A stretch of DNA of 64,000 nucleotides from Amoebidium appalachense (Eukaryota; Protista; Ichthyosporea), in the NCBI GenBank assembly GCA_963693365.1, contig CAVNZM010000007.1, positions 8,553,962 through 8,617,961 of the forward strand, in the 5' to 3' direction. A model generated the notes under the pieces. It was not told the origin of the DNA. It ran no database searches and saw only the letters and a list, made by a program, of their open reading frames with translations. A program made the position numbers and the translations under genes. This document shows, piece by piece, positions 1 to 60,577 of this stretch. Position 1 is the first letter of the stretch. The number at the start of each line of letters is the position of its first letter.

Positions 1-1303
1 CCACACACTGCTGCAGAACCCCAAGCACAAGCTCCCCTACAGGCAACCGACTAGGTGCCCCCGCCGCATACACTGCAAAAATGAAGAAGAAGAAGAAGAA
101 GAAAAAGAAGAAGAAGAAGGGGGAAACAAAGACAGTCAGTACGACGAGAAAACAAACACGTGCGCACTCACAGGCAGAGGGGTAAGGCAGATACGAAACA
201 ACTTGTTACGATCCCCATCTGACTATATAAAACACTCAAAGAAAAACACCAAGTCAGTACAATGAGCGCATATACACGCGCACAGATACCCAAAGAGAAC
301 AAACAGTAAACCGTTACGACCCCCACCCAAATGATTAATCTTCTGACAATCCTACACATGGTTATCTCTATGAGAAAACGATGGTTTTGTGATCGAAAAG
401 GCCCCAAAACACGAAACCGCTCTCACCCACATAACCCCCATAAATCAGATGACCGCTGAGAGGTAGATCTGACGAGACTCTCGAGAGGGTCAGTGGAAAT
501 AGGGTATGCATTCCGGAGGCCGCCGCAGGGGGAGGGGGGGGGGGGGGGGGGTTTGAATGCGGAACACGGTACGAAGTACGCATACACGATGAGAAGCATC
601 GTGCAGGACACATGCAAAGGCAAACATTCAAGTATGCAACATCATCCATGCGCACAGTATGCGTCATAAGCAGAGCCCATCCTCAGGGAGGGCCCAAGTC
701 ATCAATTGCGTCTGAGTTTCGACCCCCTAGCCCGCGTATATACGACTCTCCAACTCAGACAGCAGCATCAACTGAACATGGGAGGGTCAACCCGTCTTGA
801 TCAAAGACGAGCAGGGTTGCTTATGCAAGCAAGGTAAAAAACGGTGAAGATGTGAGTGCAAACTAATGCAGTGCAGCGAAAAATGTGTATGTGCTTACAG
901 ATGCACGACACAGAGCAACCATGCCCGGTTGCATGGAAGTAAAGCGGTCTCCACACAGTGGTCTGTCCTGAAAGGACACCTTTGAAAGAAGACTGGGGGG
1001 GTTTGAATGCGGAACACGGTACGAAGTACGCATACACGATGAGAAGCATCGTGCAGGACACATGCAAAGGCAAACATTCAAGTATGCAACATCATCCATG
1101 CGCACAGTATACGTCATAAGCAGAGCCCATCCCTCAGGGAGGGCCCAAGTCATCAATTGCGTCTGAGTTTCGACCCCTTAGCCCGCGTATGGGGGGGGGG
1201 GGGGGGGGGAGAGAAGGGGGGGTTACAGTGTAGAAAGTACATATTCATGAATCTCAACACAATGCAGAAAGCTAAGCACGAATGAAGAGTGTGGATCATC
1301 CGA

Positions 1304-5955: not shown

Positions 5956-8900
5956 AGGAAAAAAAAAAAAAAAAGAAAGAAAGAAAGAAAGAAAGAAAGA
6001 AAAGAAGGAAAAGGAAAAGAAATGGCAGGACACCAACGAAACAAGAAAGAAAGAAAGAAAGGAAAAGAAAAAGAAATGGCAGGACACCAACGAAACAGAG
6101 ATAGAAGGGGGGGGGGGGGGGGGGGGGGAAGCAACCCCCTCTCCCTTCTCCCCCCTCGATGTCCACATACACAAATATGGTATGTCCCCCCTCCCCCCCC
6201 CCCCCCACACACACACACACATACACACACATCACACACACACTCACACACTCACTCACTCACTCACTCACTCACTCACACATCACACACACACACACAC
6301 ACAAACACAAACACAAACAAACACACTCACACTCACACACACAATACTCACCTGTGTGTGTGTTGCTTCCTTGCCATCCATGTATTCATGTTTTGTTGTA
6401 TTTGATGGATGAAAGCTGCCAATGCATGTGCATGCAACCCCCTTCCCCCCAATCCCCCCAACCCCCCAACCCCCTCCTTTTTTTTTTTTTTTTTTTTTTT
6501 TTTTCTTTTTTTTGTTTGTGGTGTGTTCTCACATGGTTGTTTATCTGCAGTCTGTATGCCATCACGGCCAAGGTGGCACCGACCAAGCGGTCGGGGGGAA
6601 TAGAGGTGCTGGAGGGGGATACGTTCAAGTTGCACTGCCTGCAGACACAGACCGGTATGCGGGGGGATATATATCTTCTACGGCAAATAGTTTTTTTCCT
6701 TTCTCTCTCTCTCTCTTTTTTTCCCCCTTTCCCCCCCTACTGATAATATTTCTTTTTTCTTTTCCTCTCTCTCTTTCTTTTCTTTTCTTTTTTCGCCAAC
6801 TCCCCGCACTGCCCTTTTTTTTTTTTTTTTATTGCTTATGTGTTTTGTGTTGTGTGGTGGATTAGCTTATGTGTGGGGCGAATGGGACGCAGGGATGTTT
6901 CAATGAGTGGATATGGGGCTGTATTTGTGTCCGTGTGTGCTTGTCGGTAGGTGGGTGTGTGTTCTTGTGTGTGTGTGTGTGTGTCTGCACGTATGCTTGT
7001 TTCGGGTCAAAAAGGGGACACCCCCGTCGTTACTGAAGGCTAGCTCGTGTGTTTCTTGGTGGAGGCGTAAACGAATGTTGTGGTGAGGTGGTTTTTGGTT
7101 TGTTTAATTTGTTTGTTTGTGTGTGTGTGTGTGTGTGTGTTTGCCGGGGGGAGGGGAGGGGGGGGGAGAGAGAAGGCTGGATAGGTATGCTAGAAACGAC
7201 TGGTCTTTTTTGTGTCGACTTGTGTGTGGGGTGTCAAGCATGTGTGTGGGTGTGGGTTATTGGTGAGTTTGTATGTGTGTGGAATGTGTGTGTGTACATC
7301 TGTGTGCATGTTAAATTTTCAGGTTGCCCTAGGTTTGTGGTATGCTGGGGACCCGGTGTGCAAGGAGAGAGACAAGAGCTAGGAGCCTGTGGTTTTGTTT
7401 GGTTGTTTTTGCTTCGGTTTACAAGGGCGTGAACATATTGCATGCTGCTTGGTTTTGTCATGTTGTCGGTACTGTTGCATCCCCCCCCCCCCCCCCCCCC
7501 CCCGCTTTACTTCCATGCAACCGGGCATGGTTGCTCTGTGTCGTGCATCTGTAAGCACATACGCATTTTTCGCTGCACTGCTTTCGTTTGCACACACATC
7601 TTCACCGTTTTGCTCACCTTGCTTGCATAAGCAACCCTGCTCGTTTTTGATCAAGACGGGTTGACCCTCTCAAGTTCAGTTGATGCTGCTGTCTGAGTTG
7701 GAAAGTCGTATATACGCGGGCTAAGGGGTCGAAACTCAGACGCAATTGATGACTTGGGCCCTCCCTAAGGATGGGCTCTGCTTATGACACATACTGTGCG
7801 CATGGCTGATGTTGCATACTTGAATGTTTGCCTTTGCATGTGTCCTGCACCATGCTTCTCATCGTGTATGCATACTTCGTACCGTGTTCCGCATTCAAAC
7901 CCCCCCAGTCTTCTTTCAGAGGTGTCCTTTCAGGACAGACCGCTGTGTGGAGACCGCTTTACTTCCATGCAACCGGGCATGGTTGCTCTGTGTCGTGCAT
8001 CTGTAAGCACAACGCATTTTTCGCTGCACTGCTTTCGTTTGCACACACATCTTCACCGTTTTGCTCACCTTGCTTGCATAAGCAACCCTGCTCGTTTTTG
8101 ATCAAGACGGGTTGACCCTCTCAAGTTCAGTTGATGCTGCTGTCTGAGTGGAAAGTCGTATATACGCGGGCTAAGGGGTCGAAACTCAGACGCAATTGAT
8201 GACTTGGGCCCTCCCTGAGGATGGGCTCTGCTTATGACACATACTATGCGCATGGCTGATGTTGCATACTTGAATGTTTGCCTTTGCATGTGTCCTGCAC
8301 CATGCTTCTCATCGTGTATGCGTACTTCGTACCGTGTTCCGCATTCAAACCCCCCCCCCAGTCTTCTTTCAGAGGTGTCCTTTCAGGACAGACCGCTGTG
8401 TGGAGACCGCTTTACTTCCATGCAACCGGGCATGGTTGCTCTGTGTCGTGCATCTGTAAGCACATACGCATTTTTCGCTGCACTGCTTTCGTTTGCACAC
8501 AAATCTTCACCGTTTTGCTCACCTTGCTTGCATAAGCAACCCTGCTCGTTTTTGATCAAGACGGGTTGACCCTCTCAAGTTCAGTTGATGCTGCTGTCTG
8601 AGTTGGAAAGTCGTATATACGCGGGCTAAGGGGTCGAAACTCAGACGCAATTGATGACTTGGGCCCTCCCTAAGGATGGGCTCTGCTTATGACACATACT
8701 GTGCGCATGGCTGATGTTGCATACTTGAATGTTTGCCTTTGCATGTGTCCTGCACCATGCTTCTCATCGTGTATGCGTACTTCGTACCGTGTTCCGCATT
8801 CAAACCCCCCCCCCCCCCCCCCCCCCCGCGCGGACGAAAAAAAAAAATGAAATGAAATAGAAAAATATGAACGAAATAAATAAAAAAATAAAGAGAAAAG

Positions 8901-13039: not shown

Positions 13040-13076
<37 letters not shown>

Positions 13077-13397
13077 TTGAATGCGTCAAAAAGTACGAAG
13101 TACACAAGAACAAACGGATAACACGATGCAGAATGCAAGCCATACATAAAGAGTATGCATAATAAGCAGAGCCCATCCTCAGGGGGGGCCCACGTCATCC
13201 ACAGTACCCGAGTTTCGACCTATTCCCCTCGTTAACGAAACCCAACTCAGATACTGTTTCACTTGAACATGAGTAGGTCACCCGTCTTGATCAGAGACGA
13301 GCAGGGTTGCTTATGCAGGCAAGGGCAGTGGGAAAGGCCGGGGGTTAAAGTTGCAGCAGTAAGCAGAAGCAAGAAAAATAGGGGGGGGGGGGGGGGG

Positions 13398-20054: not shown

Positions 20055-20563
20055 GGGGGGAGGGATAGGGGAGGGCCGGGGTTGAACGAGCCATAAAGTA
20101 CGAAGTACACATCCACAACGGACGATGGGTACGGTTGCTTATGCAAGCAGGCAACAGGCAAGGGCAGTGGGAAAGGCCAGGGGTTTAAGTTGCACCATCA
20201 AGCAGAAGCAGGAAAAAACGGGGGGTTTTCAGGCTGATATTTCCGATATAAATAGTGTGGGGTGCCTACATGAGCCAGTGCGGCAAGGTATCTGGCCGGC
20301 AGGCTGCCAGGGAGCAGTTTTGCCCTCTGAAGTACGTGGATGGTGCGGTGGTGCTGGCCCGCTACAAAGTAGGCATTGGCAAGGTGGTACACATCCTCGG
20401 CAGCCCCTGCACACAAACATATTATAATACACTTCGGCCCTCCCTCATGTCCGGTCCGCCTACTACCTCTCTCCCTCTGACTCGCTGCATCTTGCATCTG
20501 TCTCCCACACACTCACTTTTACTCTCACTCTCACTCTCACTCTCACTATCACTCACACACACA

Positions 20564-22193: not shown

Positions 22194-22320
22194 CCAACTT
22201 ATGCTAGACTTTCACCTCCCCCCCCGTGCTCCCAACACTTCGCTACCGCACATACCTGAGCCCAGCCGCATTGCCAGACAACTCAGGCTTTGCCTGCTGT
22301 CGTCCGGCCCCAAGCCGCAT
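10723..22320 (-). CDS. CDC16: Anaphase-promoting complex subunit 6 (Cdc16/Cut9, TPR repeats), ~15 exons
   Basis: Exons 22320-22256, 21330-21182, 20406-20270, 19661-19616, 18762-18719, 18060-17947, 17411-17366, 16727-16624, ~15848-15722, 15017-14817, 14168-14043, 13025-12873, 12481-12341, 11779-11644 and 10830-10723. Motifs include AIIWADK, CYRQALKKDVFCAEAF, DPHHTGCLEVHVVCLTEL, AWFAVACYY, ARRYFSKA, GFGHSFASAGEHDQAMASY and HQELGVVYY. One exon is off by 1 nt at a G12 run. Confidence 0.92.
13075..13380 (-). mobile_element. G-tract-inserted structured repeat, subfamily B: ~305-bp monomer in a CDC16 intron
   Basis: Starts with a G tract then TTTGAATGCG and ends at a G tract. Shares core blocks ATAAGCAGAGCCCATCCTCAGGG.GGGCCCA.GTCATC, GAGTTTCGACC, CCAACTCAGA and CCCGTCTTGATCA.AGACGAGCAGGGTTGCTTATGCA with subfamily A; the remainder is diverged. 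Confidence 0.85.
20082..20219 (-). mobile_element. Core-deleted derivative of subfamily B G-tract element in a CDC16 intron
   Basis: G tract, then TTGAA..AAAGTACGAAGTACAC joined to GGTTGCTTATGCA..CAGGCAAGGGCAGTGGGAAAGGCC..AAGTTGCA..AAGCAGAAGCA, then a G run. Matches both ends of 13075-13380 but lacks the ~160-nt core. Confidence 0.7.
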
Positions 22321-23730
22321 TTTGCTCAACTATACGAGCCGCTGCCGCGCAGAGAATACAGAACCACAAAATTGTCGTTCCTTTCTATGAAGGTGTATGA
22401 AGGGGCGAGGGTGTGGGTGGTGCCTATGTCCACCCTACACTAGACTAAACTTCAGGTGCACACAACTACTCAATCGAACTGGGACTGAGGCGCAAAGGGG
22501 AACCAGCATAGTCACTTGAAGAAGAAGCAGCGTGCCTATGCGTCTGCGTTAGCCCTGTGCAGGCTGTAAGTAACCGTCTCGCGAGACGTGCGTTGCCAAG
22601 ACTCATGACTGATGCCGCAACTGGCAGAGCTTCAAGTGTTCCTGCAGCTGCGAACTTCCCGCCATTTTCGAATAACCACTTATGTCTTTCTATAGGCTCC
22701 TTTGATTGGGTACATTATTTGGACGCCCGGTCCCCCGGCCCCTCCCCGCCCCCTCCCCCCCCCCCCCCCCCCCCGGCCCCGCGCGGGCCTCCCAGCCCCC
22801 GGGACCCCACGTCGGCCTCCCGCCCTCCCCCCCTTCCCCGGGCAATCCCCCCCTCCCCTCTTCCCCCCCCCCCCTCCCCCTCCTCCTCCCCCCCCCCCCC
22901 CCCCCCCCCTCCCCACCCAAATGGCCACAAACTGTCACCACCGCCATCAGCTGGTCTACTGGCCACACGTAGCACGTGTACACAGTGCACAGGCACACAC
23001 ACGCACACACGCACGCACACACACACACACACACATGTCTATTTATTACAGCCAGTAGGTGGCTGCCATATATCCCTTACCACCCTTCCATCATGACAGA
23101 CTCATCAGAATTATGACAAACTGCATCGAGCTGGGAACATGTATTTCCAAATCCCCCCTCCCCCCTCCCCCGCGCACTGGGAGCCATAGTGTTTACGTTA
23201 TTAAAGGGTGCAACTAAGAATGATTTGCAGCAAATACTCGCTTTGCTCACAATGTTGTATAAGGATAGAAAAATGTACTATGATACAGATGATGTATATG
23301 TACCCGTGCATGTTCCAGTATTTGAACGTCCCACAGCTGGCTCAGTAAATCAAATAGAGAGGAGAGGGACCCAGATTTGCGATTTCCATTAATTAATGTT
23401 AAAGTGCACCCTATCATACATGTAATTTGCTAAGAGAAATTTATTTGACTTCATTTTCTTTCACACCAGGGCTATGACTTACACAGGTTTGGATCGATAC
23501 CACATGTCTCTGATTTGATCTTGCCCTGCATTTTCGCACTTTCGACATTCGCAACTTAGCAAGCGGTTATCTGCTACGTGTAGGGAGGAAGGTTTAGGTA
23601 AAAGAATGATTACTTGTGGAGGAAAAATATAAAATCCACAATAAAACTGCCACAAGACTTAAAACTCCACAATAAAACTGTACGTATTGGTCGGTAGGGT
23701 AATCGTGTGTTGATTAAGTTACCGGTTTTT

Positions 23731-23761
<31 letters not shown>

Positions 23762-23930
23762 GGGGGGGGGGGATCCAAAATATTTCCGAAGCCTTCGGAA
23801 ACCAAACCTCTACATACAGCGGTAACCTATCAAGGTGTGTTTCATTTGAAAGGTAAGGTTGATTCGTGCATTTCTCATTGTTGCGGCAATTAAGGCACTA
23901 GTCAAGACAAAAACAATTAACTCAACAGGG

Positions 23931-23964
<34 letters not shown>

Positions 23965-24111
23965 GACAAGTCATCAAATTTGTTTGGTTTTTTTAAGTAT
24001 TTGAGCGTCATCAACACGCCACCTAGAAGCTCGCGAGCACCCCAAAAGGCCTCACATTGCATACTGATTCACACACATACTTAGCCATGGTGCGACCTCT
24101 CCTCACACCAC

Positions 24112-25012
24112 TCAAACCGTAACAGATTGGTTTTCCGGTGTTTCTTCGACCACATTCTGCTCCACTGTTTGGTGTTCCTTAGGCAAACAAGCAGGGCTAT
24201 TACCACTCTCCCCATTTTCTGCATCCGGAACCCCGTTTGATTCGGCCTCTCTTCTGAATATTTCCATTTGCTCGCATTTGATTCGATCCAAGTCATCCGC
24301 TGAATATCTCTGTACCGCCCACACCGTTAGTACAAGTCCCATAAGGTGCACGCCCGCACAAACAATAAGGATTTTGGGTATGCGATAGCTTCTTCCAGTG
24401 GGGGGAATGTGTATGTGGCCAAGGCACACAACAAGCACACACACAGGCACCATGCCCAACCTGCAGACACACACATAGAACAAACCAACCTTGCAACCCT
24501 AGACTCTTAGATCATTACACCGTAGCCACCCAATATGTACAACACCATATACTATTAGGCAGCCACCCACCACCACCAGACCCCAACATACACCACTATC
24601 CCCCGTAAACCCACCCACACCACACCACACATTCCACCACTTTAGATGAACCAATGAGAGCCAAGTTTTCAAGTTTATTCATAGGTTCTGAATGGAGGGG
24701 AAGCCTGGTGCTACCCACCGGCGTGGCTGGGGTTGATACCCTGGGCAAAGTGTGTACATATAGTTAGGATTGTTATAGGTGTGTTAGTTTAACTAATAGC
24801 ATCGTAGCACCCTAGCTAGATTACTGTCGGTGCTGGGTGGAAGACGGTAGTTCCCCCTGAGGGGCCCTAGGGGCACCTCCGGGAACAAAACGGGATAGAA
24901 TAAAAATTAAAATGTATGTGGCCAAGGCGGCACCCAGCTTGCCGCATGCTGCACAGATACCACAGCCAGACAACTCAGGTTTTGCCTGCTGTCGTCCGGT
25001 CCCGAGCCGCAT
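24112..25012 (-). pseudogene. Chimeric CDC16-exon1/PHO84-C-terminus pseudogene, interrupted by an insertion and a frameshift
   Basis: ATG at 25012 reads MRLGTGRQQAKPELSG (CDC16 exon 1 copy) then CGICAACGKLGAALATY (PHO84 copy) in one frame. It resumes after the insertion with a 1-nt deletion near 24383, then IPKILIVCAGVHLMGLV...QSVTV*. Confidence 0.8.
24426..24912 (+). mobile_element. 487-bp non-coding retro-insertion (SINE or LINE 3' end) with 16-bp target-site duplication
   Basis: TGTATGTGGCCAAGGC at 24410-24425 and 24913-24928. The insert is absent from the intact PHO84 copy and ends with a GTTCCC...GGGAAC hairpin (24850-24886) followed by AATAAAAATTAAAA. Confidence 0.75.
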
Positions 25013-25423
25013 TTTGCTCAACTATACAAGCCGCTGCAGGCAGAGCATACAGAATTGCCTAGTCGCACCTTTCTATGAAGGTGTGTGAGGTGGGCGGTGT
25101 GGGTGGTGCCTCTGTCCACCCTACACTAGACTAAACATGCAGGTGCACACAACTAGTCATTCAAAATGAGGCGCAAAAGGGAACCAGCATAGTCACTTGA
25201 AGTAGTAGCAGCCTGGCAGGTGTACCTATGAGCCTGCATGAAAGTTTTATGACATAGGCTGTGCAAACAGGGTGTACAGTATGTAGATAACCGCCTCGAG
25301 ACTTTGTGCTTGACAGACTGAGGTGGCCGCGCAGTCGCAGATCGGGAATCCGAATTTCCCGTCATTTTTGAATAACAGCTTATGGCTTTCTATAAGCTCC
25401 TTTGATTAAGTCACAATTATTTA

Positions 25424-25464
<41 letters not shown>

Positions 25465-25947
25465 GGCCCCTCTGTCAGCCTCCCAATCCCCCCCCCCCCG
25501 ACCGCCCGCCTGCCCGCCCACCCTTTACATGGCCTCCCATTCGAAAAAATTCCTTTGCCCCGGGATATGTATCTGCATTATCTCGCCTTTTCACGTCATA
25601 TGAGCACATCAATAAAGTCATCCTGGAAAAAGGAAAAAAAAAATCAAGGCCGCGTGGTACTCATATTTAATTCATCACTATTAGCACTGCCCCGAGGGGG
25701 GGGGGGGGGGGGGGGGGGGGGGAGGGGGGGGAGAAAACGGGGAGGAAGGGGGGGGGGGGGGGGGGGAGGGGGGCTCCTACTAGTATGACTTGCAACGGTG
25801 ATATGTGCGTGTGTGGCGGTGGTGGTGGTGGTGGGGGGGGGGGGGGAGGGGGGGAGGGGGAGAGGGGGGAGGCGCGGGGGGGTTTCCTATGACCAACGGT
25901 GATGTGTGTGTGTATGTCACGTGGTGGGGGGGTGGGGGGCGGGGGAA

Positions 25948-25993
<46 letters not shown>

Positions 25994-26255
25994 TAGGTGG
26001 GTTGGTGGGGGGGTCGACGCCCCTCCAATGACCATAACGAATCTGTATGGCTGTACATTTGCTTTTGGCGATTGCAAGGAGACACGGCCAATGTTGTCAC
26101 AGAAGGAGCTAATGCATCCTTCGCCTGTACGAGTCAGTCATTGATCCGGCCCCCCCTTCCAACTCCAAAGGGACCCAACCCCTTCCCCCCCCTTCCCACC
26201 ACACCGGCCACGTGCACCACCACCTGGTCTACTACCGCCACACGTAGCACGTGTC

Positions 26256-26290
<35 letters not shown>

Positions 26291-26348
26291 TTAAGTGCAC
26301 ACACACAAGCACGCGCGGGCACACACACACACGCACGCACACACACAC

Positions 26349-26385
<37 letters not shown>

Positions 26386-26623
26386 TACACGCACACATGC
26401 ACACACGCACACACGCACACACACACACACGCCTATCTAGTAGAGCCACTAGCCTACCGTAGTGGCTGGCGTATATACCCCTTACTTAACAACTTCATCG
26501 CACATCATGGCCACCCTTCCATCATTATTGATGGCCTCTTCAGAATTGTGGAAAACTGCATCGGCCGGCAACATGCATTTCCTTCCCCTCCCCTTCTCCC
26601 TCCCCCCCCTCCCCCTTCTCCCC

Positions 26624-26665
<42 letters not shown>

Positions 26666-27635
26666 CCCCGCCCGCCCGCCCCAGGGAGCACACACTGGGG
26701 GCTAATGTGTTTAGGTAAGAAATTGAAGCAAAATATTCGCACTTTGCTCCCAAGTATGGAATAATGTGCTGAGTATACAGATGGCGTACATAGTACCGTA
26801 CATGTTACAGTATTTGATTCTTATGCATGATCCCACAGCTGGCTCAGTAAATTAAATAGAGAGGAGAGGGACCCGGATTTGCGATTTCCATTAATGTTCA
26901 CCGTTAAAGAGCAACCTATCATACATGTAATTTACTAAGAGAAATTTATTTGACTACATTTTCTTTCACACCAGCAGGGCTATGACTTACACAGGTTTGA
27001 ATCGATACCATGTGGCTCTGAATAAATCTTGCCCTGCATTTTCGCACTTTCGATGAATTTCGCAACTTTGCAAGAGGTTAACTGCTATGTGTAGGGAAGA
27101 AGATTTATGTAAAGGAATATATTTCTTGTGGACGCAAGATATAAAATCCACAATAAAACTGTACGCATTGGTCTGTAGGACAATCGTGTGTTGATTTGCT
27201 TTGTTTTTGGTCGGGCAGAGGGGGGGGGGGAGGGGAGGGGGGGGGAGGGGAGGGGGGGGGGGGAGGGGAGGGGAGGGAGGGGGGGATCCAAAACATTTCC
27301 GAAGCCGAACCCAGATCTCTAACATACAGCGGTAACTGATTTGTGTTTTGCGTTTGAAAGTTTAATTCGTGCATTTCTCATTTTTACGGTAATTAAGGCC
27401 CTAGTCAAGACCAGAACAACTAATTCAACAAAAATTAAACTTAAGAGCATTTTTTGTCATCAACAACGTCAAAAACAGTTGACAAGTCATCAAAATGTGT
27501 TTTTGTTTTGTTTTGTTTTGCGTGTTATTCGAACATCATCAATACGCCATCTATTGCTCGCGAGCACCCCAAAAGGCCTCACACCGCACTATTCACACAC
27601 TTGCTTACCTATGACGTGGCCTCTCCTCACACCAC

Positions 27636-29205
27636 TCAAACCGTAACAGATTGGGTTTCCGGTGTTTCTGCAACCACATTCTGCTCCACGGTTTGATGTT
27701 CCTTCCGCAAACAAGAAGGGCTATTGCCACTTTCCCCCTTTTCCCCATCCGGAACCGCGTTTGATTCGGCCTCCCTTCTGAATATTTCCATTTGCTCGCA
27801 TTTGATTCGATCCAAATCATCCGCTGAATATCTCGGTACCGCCCACACCGTTAGTACTAGTCCCATAAGGTGCACGCCTGCACAAACAATAAGGATTTTG
27901 GGTATGCCGATAGCATCCTCCAGTGGGGGGAATGTGTAGGTGGCCAAGGCTGCACCCAACTTTCCGCATGCTGCACAGACACCGTGAAGGGTGGCTTTAA
28001 CCTGTTGAGACAAGGCCGGTTAGCTGGTTCCTAATGTAATTGTGGGGGGTGTTGTTGGCGTAAAAAAAAGTGCGGAAAGCCATGTGCCCACCAAGCGAAA
28101 AGGGGGGAGTGGAGAGGGCGAGAGGAGCCCCAGGGGAGAGGGGGGGGGGGGGGGGGGGGCACGGGAGGAGGGGGGGGGGGGGGGGGGAGGATGAGACTGA
28201 GCAATGAAACAAGGTGGGATGGAAAGGACGAAGGAGACTAGCTATAGTGGTAGGAAAGGCGGGCGGGCCGGGGGGGGGGGGGGGGGGGGGGGAAGGGGGG
28301 GGGGGGAGAGGAGAGGGAGGGGCACGGAGGAGGGGGGAGGGGGGTGGGGGGAGGGAGGGAGGAAGGGAGGGGGGGTGGGGGATCGGGGAGAGGGGGGGGG
28401 GGACGGGGGAAAGAGAAGCCTCGGGGGGGTGTTGGGAGCAAAGAATGAGGAGAGGGCAAGAAGAAACTTGGTGTCGATTTCAGAAACAATGAAGTGAAGG
28501 AGAAGAAGCACTAGTGCAGATGAACGGGACGGAGGAAAGAAAACATGGGGGCAGGTAGTGCAAATGTGAGGGGTAGGGGGGGTGGGGAAAGGCCCCCGGA
28601 GTGGGGGGTGGGGGGGGGGGGGGGGGGAAGGGGGGGGGAAGAGGAGAGGGGAGACGGCATTGGAATAACTTAAAATCACACAAGGACCCGAAGGAGGGGC
28701 GAGAGGCGGGGCGGAAGCGGGGTGTGTGTGTGTTGGAGAGGGGGAGGGGAGGGGAGGGCAGGGGGGAGGGTCCAAACCTCAGCAGGATAGTATTCTCCGG
28801 GAATGATGTAGGTGGTAGCATTGGGTCCAAAGTTCGAAAACAAAAACGTAAAACCATAGAGGGTGATGAAAAGGGCAGGCATACTCTGCAGGGCGTCAAA
28901 TTCAAACCCAAGAATGGCAAACAGAACGAGAAGAATAGAAAACCCTCCTGTTTGTAGGTTTTTGCGGCCGATGGGGTCGAGAAATGCGACGGTGAGGAAG
29001 TAACCCGGCAGGGCGATAAGAGCCAAGATGAATGCGTTGAGAGCTTTGGCTTCCAGTGTGTTTCCTAGGCCCATCACCCTACACCCCTGCGGGTTAGTTG
29101 CTCTCTCTCTTGCTCTCTCTCTCTCTCTCTCTCTCCCTCTCCCTCTTCCCCTCTCTCCCTCTCCCCCTCTCTCTCCCTCCCTCCCTCCCTCTCTCTCTCT
29201 CTCTC

Positions 29206-29272
<67 letters not shown>

Positions 29273-32200
29273 CACATGTATATCATATATATCCTCCCCC
29301 CCTCTCCCCCTCCCCCGTCTCTCTCTCTCCCCCCCTCCCCCTCTCCCCCCTCTCCCCCCCTTCCCCTCTCCCCATTCCCTCCCCTTCCCCCCTCTCCCTG
29401 CCTATGATAGATGCGCTGTGTATATGATCTGCAACATGCGGTTACAAGATAGGTACCTAAGTCCACACGTGCACCAAACAAACACATGAGGAAAACTAGT
29501 GCATACTATGGGGTTTACAATGGATATGCGGTAGAGAGTGAGGTACGGTATCAGATCACTACATGCAGTCCGTGCGCACGTGCAAATGCGGAGCATGATA
29601 GTCTAAACTTTGAGGGGTTCTGTTTGCGGAGCATTCACATGTCAAACAACACGTCCGTACATGTATCGAGGCATAGTTATTAGTCATAAATAACGCAAAA
29701 GATGTAATTGGTTAATTATAAATCATTTAGTCATAAAATACCGTGCGCAAAAGATGCAGTGTTATGAGCAGCACCGAATGCTCACGATTGCAGGAAAACG
29801 TAGACACTGGGGAGCTTCAAAATCACCAAATTATCGACCAATAGACATGAGTAGGAATATAGTACTTACTCTGTGATGTGAGCGGTAAACAACCCATTTC
29901 CAAAAAAGGTAACATCCAATAGAAACCACGTCCCAGCCGTGCCCAGTAGAGGCTTCCAGAACACCCTGGGTGCAGCCAGCAAATTTCTCGTATGTGACGA
30001 GCGTGCTGCTTTTGCTTCTTGGAAGTCGTGTGTTTCTTCCATCGTCCACCGGAGATAAACACAGCTGAGTGAGGGAAGCGCACCAAAGGCAAGCCCAAAC
30101 CGCCATGTGAACTCGTACGAGGCACCCCTGTGTGTTGTATTGCACGGATTAATTTAGCAACGTTATTAACAGTCTCTTGAACTGCCAATAAAATGCATAC
30201 AGCTTCACCTGCACCGTCTTGCCTGTATGTCATGGTTAAGCTGCTGGAACCAAGGATGTGTGTAATAAAAGGTATTCTGTGCTCATAGATACTTGCTGCA
30301 AAGTTTCCGACTACACTGTGCAAAAAACATGATGGCACAATCCCTCCCCCTCCTCCCCAACCCCTCCCCCCTCCCCCCCTTCCCCCCAACACACACACAC
30401 GCCTCCCACCCCCCTCCCCCGGGGGCCCACACTGCACCCCGAAAAAGAAAAAGAATAAAACAGTTAATACGTTTTTCTTGTTTTTTTCGTATCGCCTCCC
30501 CTGTGTCACTCACACCTTGCAAAACACACCAGTTACACCCCCACCCGAATGAAACACACATACTGGCACACGCGTACGATTCATCAGCTCTGCATCATCC
30601 CTCTCCAAGTCTAGTGGAGCCCCAAAAAATATTTTCCCCGCCAAACACCCGTCCTGACAAATCCTTCCCTGGCACGGGGGTGTACTTACGCTTTCACGCA
30701 CACCAGCATCACAGCAGTTGCCAGCAAGGCCCCCACCCCCTGCATAGAAAACACGGCCGCCATAGCTCTCCCGCGTGTTTTTGGTGTCGATGATTCGCAC
30801 GCAATCGTAGCAGCCAACGGGTATTCCCCACCCACACCAACCCCAAGAATAAACCTCCATATGGCCAACTGGGTATACACGCTAACATGTTGCGTCTGCA
30901 CACACGTGCACGAACCGAGTGCACCTATGGTGATAAACAGACATGTTGAGAAAAAACACACACGACGGCCCATATAGTCGGCAAAGGTGCCAAAAAATAG
31001 CTGGCCCAAAACGGCCCCCCATAGGACGGTGGATGCAACCGCACTCTTGTCAGTGGATGTTTGGGGATATATCTGATGGCACAAGACCCGGTTACTGAAA
31101 TGTCCAGAACTCGAACGGTTGACAAAGCCCATTGTTTCGACGCGTCAACTTTGAATCCGAGGTGCCTACATATTCAATTAATGCATGCAAACACACCATA
31201 GCAACTGGTTCGCCGACGGGGTACCAGCTATCAAACAGAAGGTTGAAAGTGCATAGCGGGGTGAATGCGCATTTATACAGGTGTGATCACATTTAAAAAA
31301 CTGCAGCTGTGATTGCATACAACACACGCGTTGACACGCTCAATACATGCCTGCGCATGATACGCACATGCAACAGTACACATCCACGGCAACGCATAAC
31401 CGGGCCTTGCACCATGCCACGTATGGAAGTGCGTAAAACGGACATGCACACACACCAGCGGGCCCATTAAACACACCCACACACACATGTCCCGTGGTGC
31501 AGACAGTGAGAGATCTGTAACTTTGTATAAAACGAAAATGCGCGCCGATGATGCACACGAACACGAACACATAGCCTAAGGGCAGGCATGTGCATACCAT
31601 GATATGAACTATCAGATCCTGGTCGTGCGCACCAACACACAGCGGCAATGAACCCTCACAGTTGATTGCCACAAGCCCTGTGTGGCATCACGTGCACACT
31701 AAAATACAAAGCCTACTGCCAGACCTACTTGCTAAGGTTGGACGCCCCAGTTTCACCCAGATAGCAAAAGCCCCTACGTATGTAGCACATTAATTTTGGT
31801 CTATAACGATTGCTTCAGTCGATGATACATGGAGCTACATAGCATCCACACGCACAACTACGTGCACCTTGCACGCAGCACACGATGGCATGCACGAATT
31901 TGCCCCAGGTGACAAGTGTGCTGAATGAAGCAGCAGGTCACAACCACATGCATTATGGTCTATAGCCCCCCTAGCTTAGCACTTATCTAGTTTGAAGGCA
32001 TACCCGCATCATATGGAGGCATTCCATACAGAAACAAACCATTCAGGTACAGAATGAGGTCTAGACCCATTGCAGGACCTCGAGCGCATGCAAAGTCTTC
32101 TCACATACATAGCCATTTCTATTTGTTCCTGCTCTTTAAAGTTGTGTTTTTTTCGGGGGTGGGGAATATGATACTCTCGAGGGAAAAATACTAGCTTAAA

Positions 32201-32512: not shown

Positions 32513-33614
32513 CTTTTCAGCTGCAGACGTCAATTACGGAGGGCGTAGGGTGGTAGCTCGGTGCAAGAAACTGTGCACATGCATGTAAACCGTGAGAACC
32601 GCTACATTCATGCACCCGCCCACAATATTTGACGGGCTTCAAATGGTTCTAGGTGTTAATCGGTAATGATGCAGCAATAACTCTGCAAGGCTGCTGTGGT
32701 TTTGTTTTCGTTCAAGTTGAACGAGTTTTGTGAGATTTTGTGGAGATTACCGTAATGTTACGTGCACAAGCATGCAACTACAACTGCAACTGTCACTTAC
32801 GAGTGCCTGACGCTAGCAATTGAAACAGTTAGGCATTCTTTATGAGTGTGCTTCATAGTACTCTCTGTTTGTTTTCAACAACGTCGCTAGTTTGCAACAG
32901 AAACTTCACAATCAGTTCTTTACCGATACCAAATGAATGTGATGTGACGTGAAGGTCAGCTGGTGTCGATACCTTGAATGCTTTCCAAATTTCGAATGAT
33001 TGGCCATTGGTTAACTTTTTGAATAGCTTTTCGGTGGTTCAAACACATGACAAATATCTAATCACGATCTCTATCGAAAACCACGACGGCGTGACACAGA
33101 TACGTTATTTCGCCGGAAAAAACGGCAGGTGATGACAACGGGGATGTGTCAGGATGCCTTTTCATTAATACAAACTGCCTAATTACCCCCTTTTATTTGT
33201 TTTTTGTGCCTTTTTTCCCAGAAATAAATGACAAACGAACGAGGCTGTAAGAACACGCGGCAGCAAATTCCGATAACATTTTCCAGGATGTTCGGGGATG
33301 ATGCGGCTTTTATCTTCGACAAATAAGAATCTATCAAAAAAAGCCATATGAGTCAAGTTCGAGGATCCCCTAAAACTCATATGTGTGGGGCGAGTCGTAT
33401 TTATGTAACAGCGAGCGGATTTACGATTTTCCAGTTTCGACATTTATGCCACGTAAAATTCCGTTACAGACATAGGACTGCATGTAGTTCTACATATAGT
33501 AAAAATCAATAAATTTCCACTAAATATGGGTATTTTGGTAGGAGGGGGCTCCATTTTCCGTACTTAATAATTACATACTGTTACGCACATATGGAAACGG
33601 GGTCTAAGATTCCC

Positions 33615-34879
33615 TTAACCGAAGATGTCATGCACCAGATGCTTCGTCAGGTGGATCAATGGTGCACCGAGAATCTCATGACAGTCGGAATTGCAAAGTG
33701 TGCTACTTTTTCGAAGAACACTTCCTTTCGATTGGCCGGCCTTCCTATTCCTGTTCAGAGCACCTATGACTATTTGGGTATTCCTTTTACTGCACGGGGT
33801 ATTGATTTCCGCAAGCTCCTCACGGCACGGATCGCTCGTGCGAAGGGTAAGCTTCACATCGTGTCAAATATGTTTCAACAGGAGTCTGTGATCCATCCTG
33901 CGAACCTTCTTCTCTACTATAAAACTTTTTTACGGCCGACTTTCGAATATGGACTTCCGCTATTGGCCTGCGCCCCACCTCGCGAGGCGGCAATGGCGCT
34001 GAACGAGTTCGACGATTTTCAGGGTACTGCGTTACGCACTTTGTTTCGTACTCGGTTTGTGCCTCCCTTAATCAGTATGTTTGGATTGTCGTCTGCTGTT
34101 TGTCGTATGGAGGAATCGTCTCTTCGTTTTTGTTTTCATTTAGTTAGGCTACCTGATGGTCACCCTCTTTATGCTTTCTTTCCCCCCCTCCCTCCATCCC
34201 TCTTCCCCCCCGATTCACCAACGCTACTTCTGAATGTCCTCAGCCTACCCTCTTTCCACCTGATTCTTCCTCTCGCTATATATCTCACTCCCTCTAGATT
34301 CCTTTCTCTTCCTGTTTTTTCTGCCTTTTCGCGTTATTACCATACGCAGTATAAGTTTCTTTCTCGTTCTGATAGACAAATCAAAGGTAAAACTCAGTCG
34401 GCATGTGTTATGTTCCTTAGGCAACACCGTACTGATCACTATCTTTGGCAGGATACATTTCTCCTGCTGTACGTATGGATACCACCCTAGTAGATAAGTC
34501 TGTATGGTGCTCTGATGTTGATATTGCCTGGGAAGTTGTGCAGTGGCGCTGTAATTCTTGTTTTCATCGCCGCTGGTGCCACTTTTGTGCTGACCTTTTT
34601 AATCGCAAGCATGTTGATAGGTGTGAATTTTTATGTCGCGTTTTACCTCTTTCCCTCCGGGTATGTGCTACACTAGCTGGCAATGTGAACACTTTAGACT
34701 TTTTGTTGAATTCTGTTGGTCGTCACATTGAGTATTTATATGATTTTCACACAGTGTTCAGGTATCTCAGTATGCACTTGTTACTGGATAACTCGTGAAG
34801 TTTTTGTTGTCTTCTCCGTATGCCGTGCATACTTGCATCTCTTTCCGTTGAATAAATCCAGTCAAAAGAAGAAAAAAAA
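33615..34879 (+). mobile_element. 5'-truncated non-LTR retrotransposon (LINE): RT C-terminus/thumb and C-terminal Cys/His motif, A-rich tail, 9-bp TSD
   Basis: ORF 33591-34490 contains WCTENLMTVGIAKC, YDYLG and LLYYKTFLRPTFEYG (RT domains 6-7 and thumb). A second frame carries CHFCADLFNRKHVDRC. AATAAA is followed by an A-rich tail at 34864-34880. AAGATTCCC is duplicated at 33606-33614 and 34880-34888, so the ATG at 33591 comes from flanking DNA. Confidence 0.88.
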
Positions 34880-35249
34880 AAGATTCCCGGGAAAGCAGGT
34901 ACGCGTCAAACGGACGCCCGCCTACTTAGAAGTGTTGGGGGATCCAGTTCGACAGGATTCTACAAATCACGGATTTCGCGTCAGCTGATTACCGGCTGGC
35001 TCATCGTTGTGGACCGGGTACTAGCAAACCCATTGGCACAAACTAAAGTGGCTTAGAGACTTATCTAGGACCATAAAATCCAGTATCATGTTTGAAAATA
35101 TCGATGGAAGGGGGAAGTGGGCTCATTGCAGGGATTTCTGCATAGCCAACCCCATGCTGGTCAGTGCTCACTGCAATCTCAAAATTCCATTCTCAACAGC
35201 TGACCACCAGGGCTCACTGGATGATTGGGCAGATCTTGGGATGCATGGA

Positions 35250-38250: not shown

Positions 38251-50875
<12,625 letters not shown>

Positions 50876-52633: not shown

Positions 52634-53730
52634 CTATACTTCTTTTCCTCCAACTGACCAGTTAACTTTCTGCCTTTCACAGACCCCATGGAATGGAGCG
52701 TCATTGAATTTTTTTTGGCGCTGGTCCCGTTTATTTATATTTCCTCCACCAACCGGCCGAGCTCGAGTCTTTTTGCCTCGCCCACTGACACACTTTCTCT
52801 TTTTCTCCTCTGCATTTTTCTGCACGGGTGACTGCAGGCGCTCTAGCTCCAGCACCATAAACGGTTGGCACAATATACACAGTTGCTTTTGGATCCGGAG
52901 GGCAGCCTCTACATCCATGATGTTTGCATCGTGAAACTTGGCCCCGTTTTGTGTTTGTTGAAGTAGCCATTTTGCGCCACCCTTCAACAAGGTGCACACC
53001 TTTTCCTTGTATCGAAGTTTGGTTCTATTTCACTCTGAAGCCCGGCCAGACAATCTCGCCGTGAACAAGTCTTTATTGTGCGGTTGAAGTAGGACGGCAC
53101 AGCACGGATCCAAAAGTTGAGTGCCGAAATGTGACCGGTTTCGCTCAACCCGACACCATCACACCCATAAGCGCTCAGAAACTCTCCTGAATCGACGAAT
53201 TTGGCGTATTTTTGACCCCAGCCTCTCCCTCGATGCTCTCCAAAGATCTCAAACTCAGAAACTATGAAGTCGTGGTGGAGATGTGGGCCTGTGGAGCAGT
53301 TACGTTCTCGAGGGTTGCCATCTAAGATTTGCTCCTTTCCTACATTCGTTGCCGAAAGGAGACCACCCTGGGGTATTTTGTACAGCATATACCCAATAAT
53401 TATGCCTTCTGCACCAGAACCCTCAACCACCAAGATAATGAAGTGTGCAATTTGTTCCGAAATAAGAAAGATCTCGGTCTGAAAATGGTTGCTCCCCCAT
53501 TAGGCTCACAGGTCCTTCTAATAGACGTTTCCACCCCCGTTCTATGAGTTCGCAAGTATAAGCGTCAGTGTGATTATTGTGGGCTGGTATTCCTAGGCCT
53601 ACATTGCAGGGTGATCGGTAGAGTTTCTGCGTGTGTGAGTCGGAAACTATTGCAATGTGAGGCTGGGCCATGGCAGGGTCCCATGATATCGATGGAGTCA
53701 TGGGGTCGGTAATTCTTACAATTCCCATTA
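52634..53730 (-). pseudogene. Frameshifted paralog of the GNAT-like gene at 54672 (two frameshifts, near 53432 and 53020)
   Basis: Three consecutive ORF pieces align collinearly with the plus-strand protein: GWKRLLEGPVSLMGEQPF vs GWERLVSGSVTLRGEQPF; VSEFEIFGEHRGRGWG vs ISEFEIFSEYRSRGFG; HISALNFWIRAVP vs HFSALNFWVRAVP; VCTLLKGGAKWL vs ICKVLVGAAKWL. The start position is uncertain. Confidence 0.8.
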
Positions 53731-54605: not shown

Positions 54606-54671
54606 TGCGCCGACAACTCTAACACACATCAGTAAAATATCACATAGAAGTCTTTTTGTAACATATCTATC

Positions 54672-55751
54672 ATGTCGCGAAGTGCCACAAAAAATGTTAT
54701 AATCAACACGTCGGGGTGCAAGTCACCCCAGCAGCCTCAGCCGGCCACTATTTCGTTCAAGGCTGGCTCCCTTCAGATAGTTTCCCAAGTTACATCAAAG
54801 CACACACAAACACCCAAGGTTGCTAATAAGGAACTTCTTCTACCCAAAGAAGATGCTGCTACGCGTGAAGCACGCCGTATTACCGAATTGGGCTGGGAGA
54901 GGTTAGTTTCTGGTTCTGTGACTCTGCGTGGTGAACAACCATTTGCACCTGCCAGCGACTCGATGGATGAATTCGACAGGAGGCTAGTTTTGCACTTTTT
55001 CGTTCTGAATGAGGAAGAGGAAGACACGTCAGAGGTGGTGGGATATATGTTTTGTATGACCGATACACCCCATGAGAATCCACGGCGGCACATAGGAAAG
55101 CATACTGTGTGCGACTGCGAGCGAAGAATCAATAACGACCGCCTGCTTATGATCTCTGAGTTTGAGATATTTAGTGAATACAGAAGCAGAGGTTTTGGGA
55201 AACAACTTGCCGATATGATCTCTTCGAGCGGGTATTTAAGCCTGTATGACTGCACAGGTATAGAACTTATGGAGATTAGCCATTTCTCGGCGTTGAATTT
55301 CTGGGTACGCGCTGTCCCCGACCACTTCTACCAAAAGCTCGACACGTGTGCACGCAGCGAGTGTATTCCAACTTTGGAAATCGAGCTCCAACACACCCTC
55401 AAGCACAAAGAAGACATATGCAAAGTGCTTGTTGGTGCGGCAAAGTGGCTAAGAGAGCACGACAGGCAAACACAGAAGCAGTCGAAGTGTGGAGGTTTAA
55501 GTGCATCGCAGAGGAAGGAGCAGCTTTTAGCGCACCTGCAAGCTGTTTGTCGCGCTGCTTTTGAAGAGGAGAAAAAACTTGCAGAAAGTCTTTATCTGGA
55601 TGTTCCTTCTGTATCTACGCCAAAATCAAGGACCCCTTCTGCTGGTAGGCGTCATAACCGTCAGATGGGCTCTCCCTCACCAAAATCCCCGAACGGGCGA
55701 AAGGTACAAAGCGGTGCACGTGGATATGGAAAAACCAAATTGGAATATTAA
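54672..55751 (+). CDS. Intronless 359-aa protein with a putative GNAT acetyltransferase fold and a basic, S/T-P-rich tail
   Basis: Long uninterrupted high-complexity ORF, conserved with the adjacent paralog. Contains VVGYM, the acetyl-CoA motif A-like ISEFEIFSEYRSRGFGKQL and the motif B-like SALNFW. Confidence 0.75.
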   Translation: MSRSATKNVIINTSGCKSPQQPQPATISFKAGSLQIVSQVTSKHTQTPKVANKELLLPKEDAATREARRITELGWERLVSGSVTLRGEQPFAPASDSMDEFDRRLVLHFFVLNEEEEDTSEVVGYMFCMTDTPHENPRRHIGKHTVCDCERRINNDRLLMISEFEIFSEYRSRGFGKQLADMISSSGYLSLYDCTGIELMEISHFSALNFWVRAVPDHFYQKLDTCARSECIPTLEIELQHTLKHKEDICKVLVGAAKWLREHDRQTQKQSKCGGLSASQRKEQLLAHLQAVCRAAFEEEKKLAESLYLDVPSVSTPKSRTPSAGRRHNRQMGSPSPKSPNGRKVQSGARGYGKTKLEY

Positions 55752-58186: not shown

Positions 58187-58217
<31 letters not shown>

Positions 58218-58218
58218 A

Positions 58219-58735
58219 GGGCCCAACCATATCGGCTGATCTAGTGAACTTGCTTCAAAGCAGAATTATTCTGCAAAAGGCAGAATCAATCTGCTAAAAG
58301 CAGAATTATTCTGCAAAAGCAGAATCAATTTGCTAAATGCAGAATTCTTCTGCTAAAAGCAGAATCACTCTTCAAACAGCAGGATTAATCTGCTAAAAGC
58401 AGAATCAATGTGCTAAAAGCAGAATCAATGTGCTAAAAGCAGAATCAATCTGCTACAAGCAGAAATGTTCAATATTAGTATGCTAAAAGCAGAATTATTC
58501 TGCTGTCGAAAGCAGACTGATTCTGAGTTTGCGTAATTATTCTGCTAAAAGCAGAATAATTCTGCTAAAAGCAGAGTTATTCAGTGCTTTTGCAGAATAA
58601 AGTCTGCTTTTTGCTGAATAATTCTGCTTTTTGCAGAATAATTCCGCTTTTGCAGAATAATTCTGCTATTTTGCAGAATAATTCTGCTAAAAGCGGAATC
58701 ATTCTGCTTCTTGCAAGTGACTCTGTCGATGTGGT

Positions 58736-58736
<1 letters not shown>
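58219..58736. mobile_element. PIF/Harbinger-like MITE copy 1 (right tip replaced by poly-C)
   Basis: Left end GGGCCCAACCATATCGGCTGA and right end TCTGTCGATGTGGTT. Internal 20-bp repeats CTAAAAGCAGAATYAWTCTG. Confidence 0.7.
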
Positions 58737-59553: not shown

Positions 59554-59940
59554 GCGCGCGCGAACACACACAATACATGCTACGTTCTCTTTCCCCATGT
59601 ACCTATTCACACGTCTACCACAAACACGCCACAGGCGCACACCGTAGTACTTATTTATACACGTCGATCAACGTGCGCACCTGCCAATAGCATACACTGA
59701 GTCTCGACGACACACATACGGTAAGTCAAATAGGAACCTACAGCACTCTAAATTCACACCAACACTAAAATTTTATACCAGGAGAAAGACGGATATGCAA
59801 AAAATCGATGCTCACATACTTCCGCATGCACTGCACGCACACACGCTAGACACACACAATCGTGTTAAACTTTGCACACGCGCACACGCACACACACACA
59901 TTCCACACGTGGATATACTCCGGCACCGTTACACAAACTA

Positions 59941-60340
59941 GGGCCCAACCACATCGGCTGAGTCAAATTGCTCCAAGCAGAATTATTCTGCACAAAGCAG
60001 AATTATTCTGTAAAAAGCACAGTCATTTAGAATCTGCTAAAAGCAGAATTATTCAACAATAGCAGAATTATTCTGCAAAAGAAGAATCAACCTGCTAAAA
60101 GCAGAATCAATCTGCTAAAAGCCAAATTATTCCACTTAAAGCAGAATTATTCCGCTAAAAGCAGACTTATTCTGCTGTCGCAGCCAAACAATTCTGCTTT
60201 TTGTGGAATAATTCTGCTAATAGCAGAATAATTCTGCTGAAAGCAGAGTGATTCTGCTAAAAAATAGAAAGCAGAGTGATTCTGCTTTTGCATTATAATT
60301 CTTCTTTTTGCAAGTTAACTCTGCCGATGTGGTTGGGCCC
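59941..60340. mobile_element. PIF/Harbinger-like MITE copy 2, 400 bp
   Basis: Perfect 18-bp TIR GGGCCCAACCACATCGGC / GCCGATGTGGTTGGGCCC. 3-bp flanks CTA/TTA resemble a TWA TSD. Same internal 20-bp repeats as copy 1. Confidence 0.78.
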
Positions 60341-60577
60341 TTAAATGCGGTGCACGCACACACAGCACTTGAATTTCACGAACGTGCTCACCAAAGCATA
60401 ACGCTCAACGGCTGGTCCAGGATGATTCCACGCATGCGTGAACACACATTTTCTCTCTCCCTCGGCATTCAATTCCGTGTGTATGTATTCCTCCCCCCCC
60501 CCCCCCCCCCCCCCCCCCCCCTTCCACTCTAGCTTATATTCACAGTTCAAGTCAACCCCAATCCCTCCCCACCCGGT

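Follow-up and report, generated by a model that had tools for sequence, protein, structure and literature searches.

Type SGC comprises natural hammerhead ribozymes whose conserved pieces follow the order cleavage Site, GAAA, CUGAnGA (Eckert 2023, PMC10085705). According to the available sections of that paper, these ribozymes cleave in vitro at 0.007-0.19 per min, often carry an extra U after A9 and depend on a helix that links stems I and II at their free sides; they are known from metatranscriptomes and environmental sequence, and those sections report none in the genomes of known organisms. Block C, made up of the stem I strand, CUGAnGA and the stem II strand, is assumed there to be uninterruptible, and the known alignments have at most 1-2 nt inserted next to CUGAnGA, which counts against the split fold proposed below. 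Hammerhead core insertions of 1-2 nt are described in the available part of PMC3088659. The six-permutation hammerhead scheme presumes that the strand running from stem I through CUGAnGA to stem II is unbreakable, and a working split form would overturn it.

As for possible carriers, metazoan non-LTR retrozymes are described, in the available text, as tandemly repeated, non-coding units that measure 150-450 nt and each bear a single type I hammerhead (PMC7229834; bioRxiv 10.64898/2026.07.22.740005). Non-autonomous Penelope-like elements (PLEs) of the Chlamys group, such as MRC1, insert at (C)n, are truncated in 5' and form head-to-tail partial tandems, according to the available sections of Craig 2021 (PMC8557442).

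We analysed a 64,000-nt window of Amoebidium appalachense DNA, which is intron-rich eukaryotic DNA with many C/G runs and CA repeats. Among named proteins, a transporter exon of the window best matches ones with the gene prefixes Ihof and Nk52, which belong to ichthyosporean gene sets. A non-coding repeat that carries a structured core was found at 6 loci within this 64-kb window, in two subfamilies, A and B. The element ranges from 305 to 455 nt (450-455 nt for the subfamily A unit). On the structured strand, the 3' end of every copy is fixed and sits at a C-run, the 5' start varies, and C-runs mostly occur on both flanks; the copies comprise 0.3 to 2.9 units. There are 105 C or G runs of at least 15 nt in the window (2,838 nt), which represent the target sites of the element.

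The first insertion (551..1190, minus strand) belongs to subfamily A and consists of ~1.4 units of 450 nt, with a truncated 5' end, its 3' end at a C-run and C-runs on both sides. It likely lies inside an intron of a gene on the same strand that we take to be MARCH6-like, a label taken from the exon peptides around the copy; a Pfam search of these peptides gave zero matches. Its conserved structured core, which we predict to be a split type-SGC hammerhead, spans 665..825 (minus). The other subfamily A loci are an array of ~2.9 units at 7502..8805 (plus), flanked by two Sybindin-family exons on the same strand, and a copy of 0.9 unit at 38869..39261 (minus), with an intact core at 38968-39130. 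The full subfamily B copy, of ~305 nt, runs from C-run to C-run at 13075..13380 (minus), with its core at 13161-13315, in an intron of a CDC16-like gene on the same strand. A B-related copy in the same gene (20081..20225, minus) has its core deleted just past the 5' strand of the outer helix P1, and a 3'-end fragment of B lies between C-runs at 49212..49298 (minus), in an intron of an RFX gene on the same strand. Thus, five copies lie between exons on the sense strand of their host genes (Sybindin, CDC16-like twice, RFX and MARCH6-like). This orientation in 5/5 assignable introns is not significant, as 33 of the 51 long C/G runs in those genes read C in the sense direction anyway.

The coreless relative of B at 20081..20225 still sits as an insertion. 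Together with joints in the sequencing contigs that skip 50-96 nt of the 3' region, it suggests mobilised deletion derivatives. The unit was detected, whole or in part, in 20 of the 24 listed sequencing runs, which represent five coded organisms; the contigs harbouring it number 14,628, 10,886 and 6,330 in three runs and 6 in a fourth, figures that are not copy numbers. Two sequencing runs that are presumably RNA contain the words of the unit at fractions of 0.29 and 0.27.

An earlier note on this DNA, made from the sequence alone, had singled out the core as the best conserved part between the subfamilies, with hammerhead motifs in scrambled order on the minus strand. The comparison of A with B bears this out, with 34/38 identical columns at 790-825 and 36/39 at 665-703, and lower identity elsewhere (54/86 columns at 704-789 and 45/115 at 551-664). 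The helices 825-818/672-665 (P1, which closes the core), 812-805/797-790 (hairpin P2), 760-753/717-710 and 782-775/700-693 are all present on the minus strand where that note placed them, as are GAAA (720-717), GUU (754-752) and CUGAGGA-U (686-679). The choice of strand holds by the changes that keep G-U pairs, the hammerhead motifs and the C-tail; folding energy does not discriminate, as the plus strand folds at least as well (z of -3.73, against -2.51 for minus).

Placed together, these pieces are predicted to form a hammerhead core. Stem III, GUCUGAGU/ACUCAGAC (760-753/717-710), is long, at 8-13 bp, and is crossed by GACCC/GGGUC (788-784/725-721). This pseudoknot is stem II, with G10.1-C11.1, GAAA, A15.1-U16.1 and H17 in register. 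Block S (749..760) contains the stem III strand 760-753, U752 as H17 and stem Ia (751-749). Block G (710..725) contains the 3' strand of stem II, with C11.1 at 721, GAAA at 720-717 and the stem III partner strand. The first half of block C (679..692) comprises the stem I partner (692-687), CUGAGGA (686-680) and an extra U679. The 5' strand of stem II (784..788, with G10.1 at 788 and its partner at 725-721) is found ~100 nt upstream of CUGAGGA; its pair 784/725 is C-G in A and U-A in B. Since stem II is this distant pseudoknot, the strand leading from CUGAnGA to stem II is split. In A as in B, all 15 hammerhead core positions line up with their stems, and the catalytic core is intact in copies 665, 38968 and B and altered in 3/3 units of the array.

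Two extra helices occupy the A9/G10.1 step, namely P1' (816-814 with 678-676) and P2, whose palindromic UGAUCA loop is kept in A and B. The cut ends are held together, with U679 continuing into P1' and P1, and P2 joins G788 directly in B and via one extra U in A. The joining-helix strand (775..782) forms 8 bp with 700-693, at a position like that in the available part of the PMC10085705 supplement. Stem I consists of 3+3 bp split by a hairpin of 12-15 nt (748-734), which has a palindromic core and differs in sequence in B; stem Ib (733-731 with 692-690) follows it in both A and B, and a link of 4-5 nt follows stem Ib. Cleavage is predicted after U752, between 752 and 751, which corresponds to 13244/13243 in the B copy and to a cut after 39055 in the copy at 38869..39261. 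Based on this arrangement, we lean modestly towards a self-cleaving, type-SGC-like hammerhead whose strand from CUGAGGA to stem II would be split by two inserted helices. That stem Ia has just 3 bp was counted against this fold.

Several details of the earlier note change. Its GACCCU/GGGGUC pseudoknot holds for five pairs; the sixth, 783/726, is not kept, position 783 being U, A or G among sequencing contigs while 726 has no listed variant. Its stem I, GGAG/CUCC, gives way to the 3-bp stem Ia (751-749/689-687), as 748 is A in the array and 747 varies. The observation that pairing directly after CUGAGGAU is poor for a stem II is correct for that place, the true stem II being GACCC/GGGUC, which was listed there separately. 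The three strands indeed do not form a circular permutation of types I-III; such scrambling is already published as type SGC. GUU is a less serious concern than had been thought, as it is present in rows of the published SGC-variant alignment. A comparison with Rfam ribozyme models, proposed as a check, yielded no match to a hammerhead or any other ribozyme family: 0 matches to the array at E up to 10 (HDV, twister, pistol, hatchet, hairpin, hammerhead and others), and none on the element among the matches listed for the window (150 of 177). On a comparison of helix order, we also dropped readings of the core as an HDV-like, twister, pistol, hairpin or group I RNA. Positions 727-716 resemble a tRNA-like B-box, with one mismatch.

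We used two descriptors to evaluate the arrangement. A liberal one, with the four hammerhead pieces in any order and a joining helix of at least 5 bp, matched 9/20,000 shuffles of the unit, 8/40,000 and 10/40,000 shuffles of the core and one unrelated locus of the window, near 30450-30590. A strict four-piece descriptor (stem III 7 bp, stem I 3, stem II 5 and joining helix 7), with thresholds set post hoc after seeing the element, matched in the window the two intact copies only (38871 and B), and 1/150,000 shuffles. The private change at 778 keeps the first-locus copy from matching it, and core changes do so for the array units. In a 46-pair model, whose nested skeleton is the minimum-energy fold of copy 38871, 99.1% of 227 cells are paired across six cores (5 distinct). 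Three pairs show two-sided changes, and 9/500 shuffles score as high, although related sequences can come out ahead of shuffles in such a test. A fourth two-sided change, A749-U689 to G-C, becomes visible when B is placed by structure and is hidden by a gap in the alignment. Thus, four pairs change on both sides between A and B, 0/27 pairs are broken in stems I-III and the joining helix (which has one two-sided change at 782-775/700-693), and one terminal P1 pair is broken.

The 5 distinct rows offer a single contrast for all this covariation, that of A with B. Searches for homologues gave 2 loci with a metagenome pattern, both unrelated, 0 and 5 loci with viral patterns and 8 loci with a prokaryote pattern, all read as chance; of these 15 loci, 0 pass the strict descriptor and one passes the liberal one. 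No further homologues having been recovered by these patterns, the covariation rests on the single contrast. In one run, the loose-end consensus at place 703 (agreement 0.56) has a third type of stem II strand, again ending in C-GAAA, whose partner strand is not visible; it points to a putative third subfamily with a different stem II strand.

The placement of stem II is where a contiguous alternative diverges. G677, after two extra nt, would be G10.1 of a contiguous type-SGC hammerhead with stem II at 677-672/726-721, a reading that we regard as quite unlikely, as we do its corollary that the upstream segment 825-775 is an inhibitor displaced for cleavage. Block C would then be unbroken, as in every published type in the available sections of PMC10085705, and a contiguous descriptor allowing 0-2 extra nt matches three copies. 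Nevertheless, 3/6 pairs of this stem II are G-U and 2/6 are broken in B, and the helices specific to this pairing show no two-sided change. Its stacking sum is -44.5, against -54.2 for the split fold, with P1 and P1' lost, and the segment that it makes an inhibitor mirrors the published layout of the stem II and joining-helix strands.

A local hairpin (693-675) that hides CUGAGGA competes with the split fold and is found in the centroid fold of 5/5 A cores. The stacking sum of the hairpin fold is -54.3, against -54.2 for the split fold before P1' is counted, both without loop or pseudoknot terms. This hairpin is a point in favour of a non-catalytic structure, hammerhead-derived or an unrelated pseudoknot, that would keep CUGAGGA in the hairpin and serve as a binding site for a mobilising protein, which we consider unlikely. 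Core mutations in 3/3 array units did not prevent insertion, Chlamys and Naiad elements spread without canonical hammerheads according to the available sections of PMC8557442, and copies reside on the sense strand of introns, where an active ribozyme in housekeeping genes would be costly to the host, a point that counts against the split fold as well. Conversely, the change at 689 disrupts a pair of the hairpin in B, whereas stem I has the compensating change, and a relic is not expected to hold 15/15 core positions while 32/86 neighbouring columns differ.

The variants found in four sequencing runs (positions 665-825, 2% threshold) bear on both folds. The variable positions are 665, 689, 692, 697, 727, 747, 778 and 783. 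Two of these eight (778 and 727) are private to the window copy, against ~99.8% of the sequencing depth, and two are unpaired in the model; the 697 and 665 variants are of B type. The change of 692 from C to U retains a G-U pair in stem I, and it keeps the 693-675 hairpin too. None of the 15 catalytic core positions is among the variants listed; this invariance is weak evidence, because 153/161 positions list none either. The 689 variant (U to C) reaches 23, 13 and 33% of depth in three runs, and the 697 variant (U to G) 12, 5 and 16%. The former is more common than the B-type markers account for, and 749 has no listed variant; as far as unlinked data go, stem I may contain an A-C mismatch in some copies, which may count against this stem.

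Returning to the split hammerhead, the units of the array at 7502..8805 differ at six sites, two of which fall in the core, and every unit is altered in the core (hypergeometric probability of 0.018 for two core changes among six differences, post hoc). CUAAGGA, noted earlier in two of the three units, was found again: units 1 and 3 share this G5A change, and unit 2 is one U short where cleavage is predicted. The pattern is consistent with the copying of a dimeric circle that could not be cleaved. The differences between units could also stem from assembly error or gene conversion; unit 2 has a second single-T loss.

Tandem copies, and the palindromes that both subfamilies have in the loop of P2 and in the insert of stem I, are consistent with a ribozyme that depends on multimers, in which the same pairings would form only between two units, with one rod docking by its base on the apex of its partner and the palindromes helping. 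The joining helix has to span to the far end of stem III, and Penelope and axolotl hammerheads cleave as dimers (available sections of PMC7229834 and PMC6765202). Against these points, published monomeric SGC ribozymes have the same long-range link (available sections of PMC10085705), stem III is long (8-13 bp), unlike in dimer-dependent hammerheads, and B occurs as a single unit; we therefore view this dependence as very improbable. Among the options raised in the earlier note, we prefer that of a hammerhead with rearranged topology, and its prediction of a cut 3' of 752 is retained; no evidence for a need of multimers was found. The unit folded as a circle is not notably stable (z of -1.63).

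If the split hammerhead is active, P1' and P2 may stack as one rod, and this rod and the stack of stems II and III may cross over at A9/G10.1 in the manner of a four-way junction. Read-through of the host intron would yield RNA with two or more cores, each of which would cut after U752 whenever the split fold beats the 693-675 hairpin, the presumed off state, and unit-length RNAs would be released. These monomers could be circularised by a host ligase; RtcB ligates animal retrozyme monomers, according to the available sections of PMC7229834. A Penelope-like (Chlamys-type) reverse transcriptase encoded elsewhere might then copy the circles into genomic C-runs, with priming at a genomic G-run on the internal C-run of the element and one to three turns copied. 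Internal initiation is demonstrated for another PLE in the available part of PMC11167929.

We found no partner reverse transcriptase within the window. A LINE-like fragment at ~33627-34860 was rejected as a partner, as it has an A-rich tail and no sequence in common with the element. It belongs to a 5'-truncated LINE-like retrotransposon (33513-34880, plus; break near 34442, A-rich tail), which shares ~50% identity with the C-terminal portion of an RT protein of 922 aa (P0001). Other repeats of the window include a complex tandem array of short diverged units at 43794-44893 (self-matches of 70-87%), unrelated to the element, and AT-rich arrays of a short palindromic unit at 58217-58736 and 59940-60342, MITE-like or satellite, which match each other in both orientations. 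A direct duplication of ~2.2-3 kb (22273-24425 and 24965-27950, 67-78% identity) is probably a tandem gene pair. Lastly, two related, divergent and intron-poor ORFs (54648-55751, plus, and 52984-53499, minus) have an acetyltransferase-like motif by eye and no Pfam match; they lie in a GC-poorer stretch and are possibly of viral or mobile origin.

We judge it evenly balanced whether the element has a seventh natural hammerhead connectivity, in which an SGC core would be opened at A9/G10.1, with the remaining RNA attached via two junction helices, and would serve a high-copy retrozyme family, in a single-celled relative of animals, as its processing ribozyme. If so, it would be the first non-circularly permuted hammerhead in the genome of a cellular eukaryote, and SGC ribozymes would move from anonymous viroid-like RNAs to a mobile element of a cellular genome. 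The core would also have a site that accepts grafted whole domains, which would be useful for switch design, and the many genomic copies allow a deep covariation test. Reportedly, Weinberg (2015) described hammerhead variants with extra helices, which could bear on novelty. In the openly available literature, including the accessible parts of PMC10162972, PMC13725137 and PMC7936874, we found no split-block or genomic SGC hammerhead. The terms Penelope, Chlamys and ribozyme were absent from the searchable text of the ichthyosporean genome paper PMC11244446.

With regard to its carrier, the element resembles non-LTR retrozymes in its short non-coding tandem units, each with one predicted ribozyme. 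It differs from them, as described in the available text, in having no type I hammerhead, in ending in C-runs and in its protist host; furthermore, retrozyme circular RNA is demonstrated in metazoans, and the element here is known from DNA sequence. All six window loci resemble non-autonomous Chlamys PLEs in their (C)n targets, 5' truncation and partial tandems. Unlike the element, Chlamys PLEs are reported without canonical hammerheads in the available sections of PMC8557442. Neither an autonomous Chlamys partner nor a shared 3' end was found within the window, and the CTGAGGATGG motif of the element has 0 matches in the PMC8557442 supplement, where line breaks can hide matches. In the available part of that source, the mark 'HHR_half_core' is given to eight Naiad families, in which GAAA lies 35-50 nt from CUGAnGA, on one side or the other; they are candidates for permuted hammerheads. 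The comparison suggests that Chlamys and Naiad elements called hammerhead-free may carry permuted ones missed by three-block descriptors. Such hidden ribozymes in Penelope-like clades without recognised ones become testable.

With regard to its core, the element has all the elements of a hammerhead, namely CUGAnGA, GAAA, UH, G10.1-C11.1, A15.1-U16.1 and adjoining stems I-III. Types I, II and III have the circular order C, G, S and no core pseudoknot, and the order here is S, G, C. In PK hammerheads, the connectivity of helix II can vary (PMC11300833), and an extra A between A9 and G10.1 is tolerated in the CChMVd hammerhead at a moderately lower rate (PMC1636495). In the available descriptions of both, A9 to G10.1 is continuous or has one additional nt, and no helices are present there, unlike in the element. 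The element shares with type SGC the S, G, C order of blocks and a helix between stems I and II that connects their free sides. An unbroken block C, with G10.1 0-1 nt after A9 and 2-6 further stem II pairs, had 0 matches in the window with a descriptor that was modelled on the published one and permits any N7; a weak match, rich in G-U pairs, appears if 2 extra nt are allowed. Nor does the element have a stem I of 4-7 bp with a 0-8 nt link to stem II. Compared with HRIMA-1 and the SGC variants in the available alignments, its stem II and joining-helix strands (788-775) lie 5' of block S rather than after CUGAnGA-U, helices occupy A9/G10.1, a hairpin interrupts stem I and the carrier is a multi-copy eukaryotic genomic repeat. 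As in the SGC rows available, 760-749, 725-710 and 692-679 follow in S, G, C order, with 700-693 adjoining stem I. Stem II of 5 bp, the joining helix of 8 bp, the short linker and the extra U after A9 are also as in SGC variants, and one published row (PMC10085705), compared by eye, has the same GACC/GGUC together with a 7-bp CCCAAGU/ACUUGGG in an unbroken run. As the element would function like type SGC yet lacks its unbroken block C and its stem I, we file it as an SGC variant.
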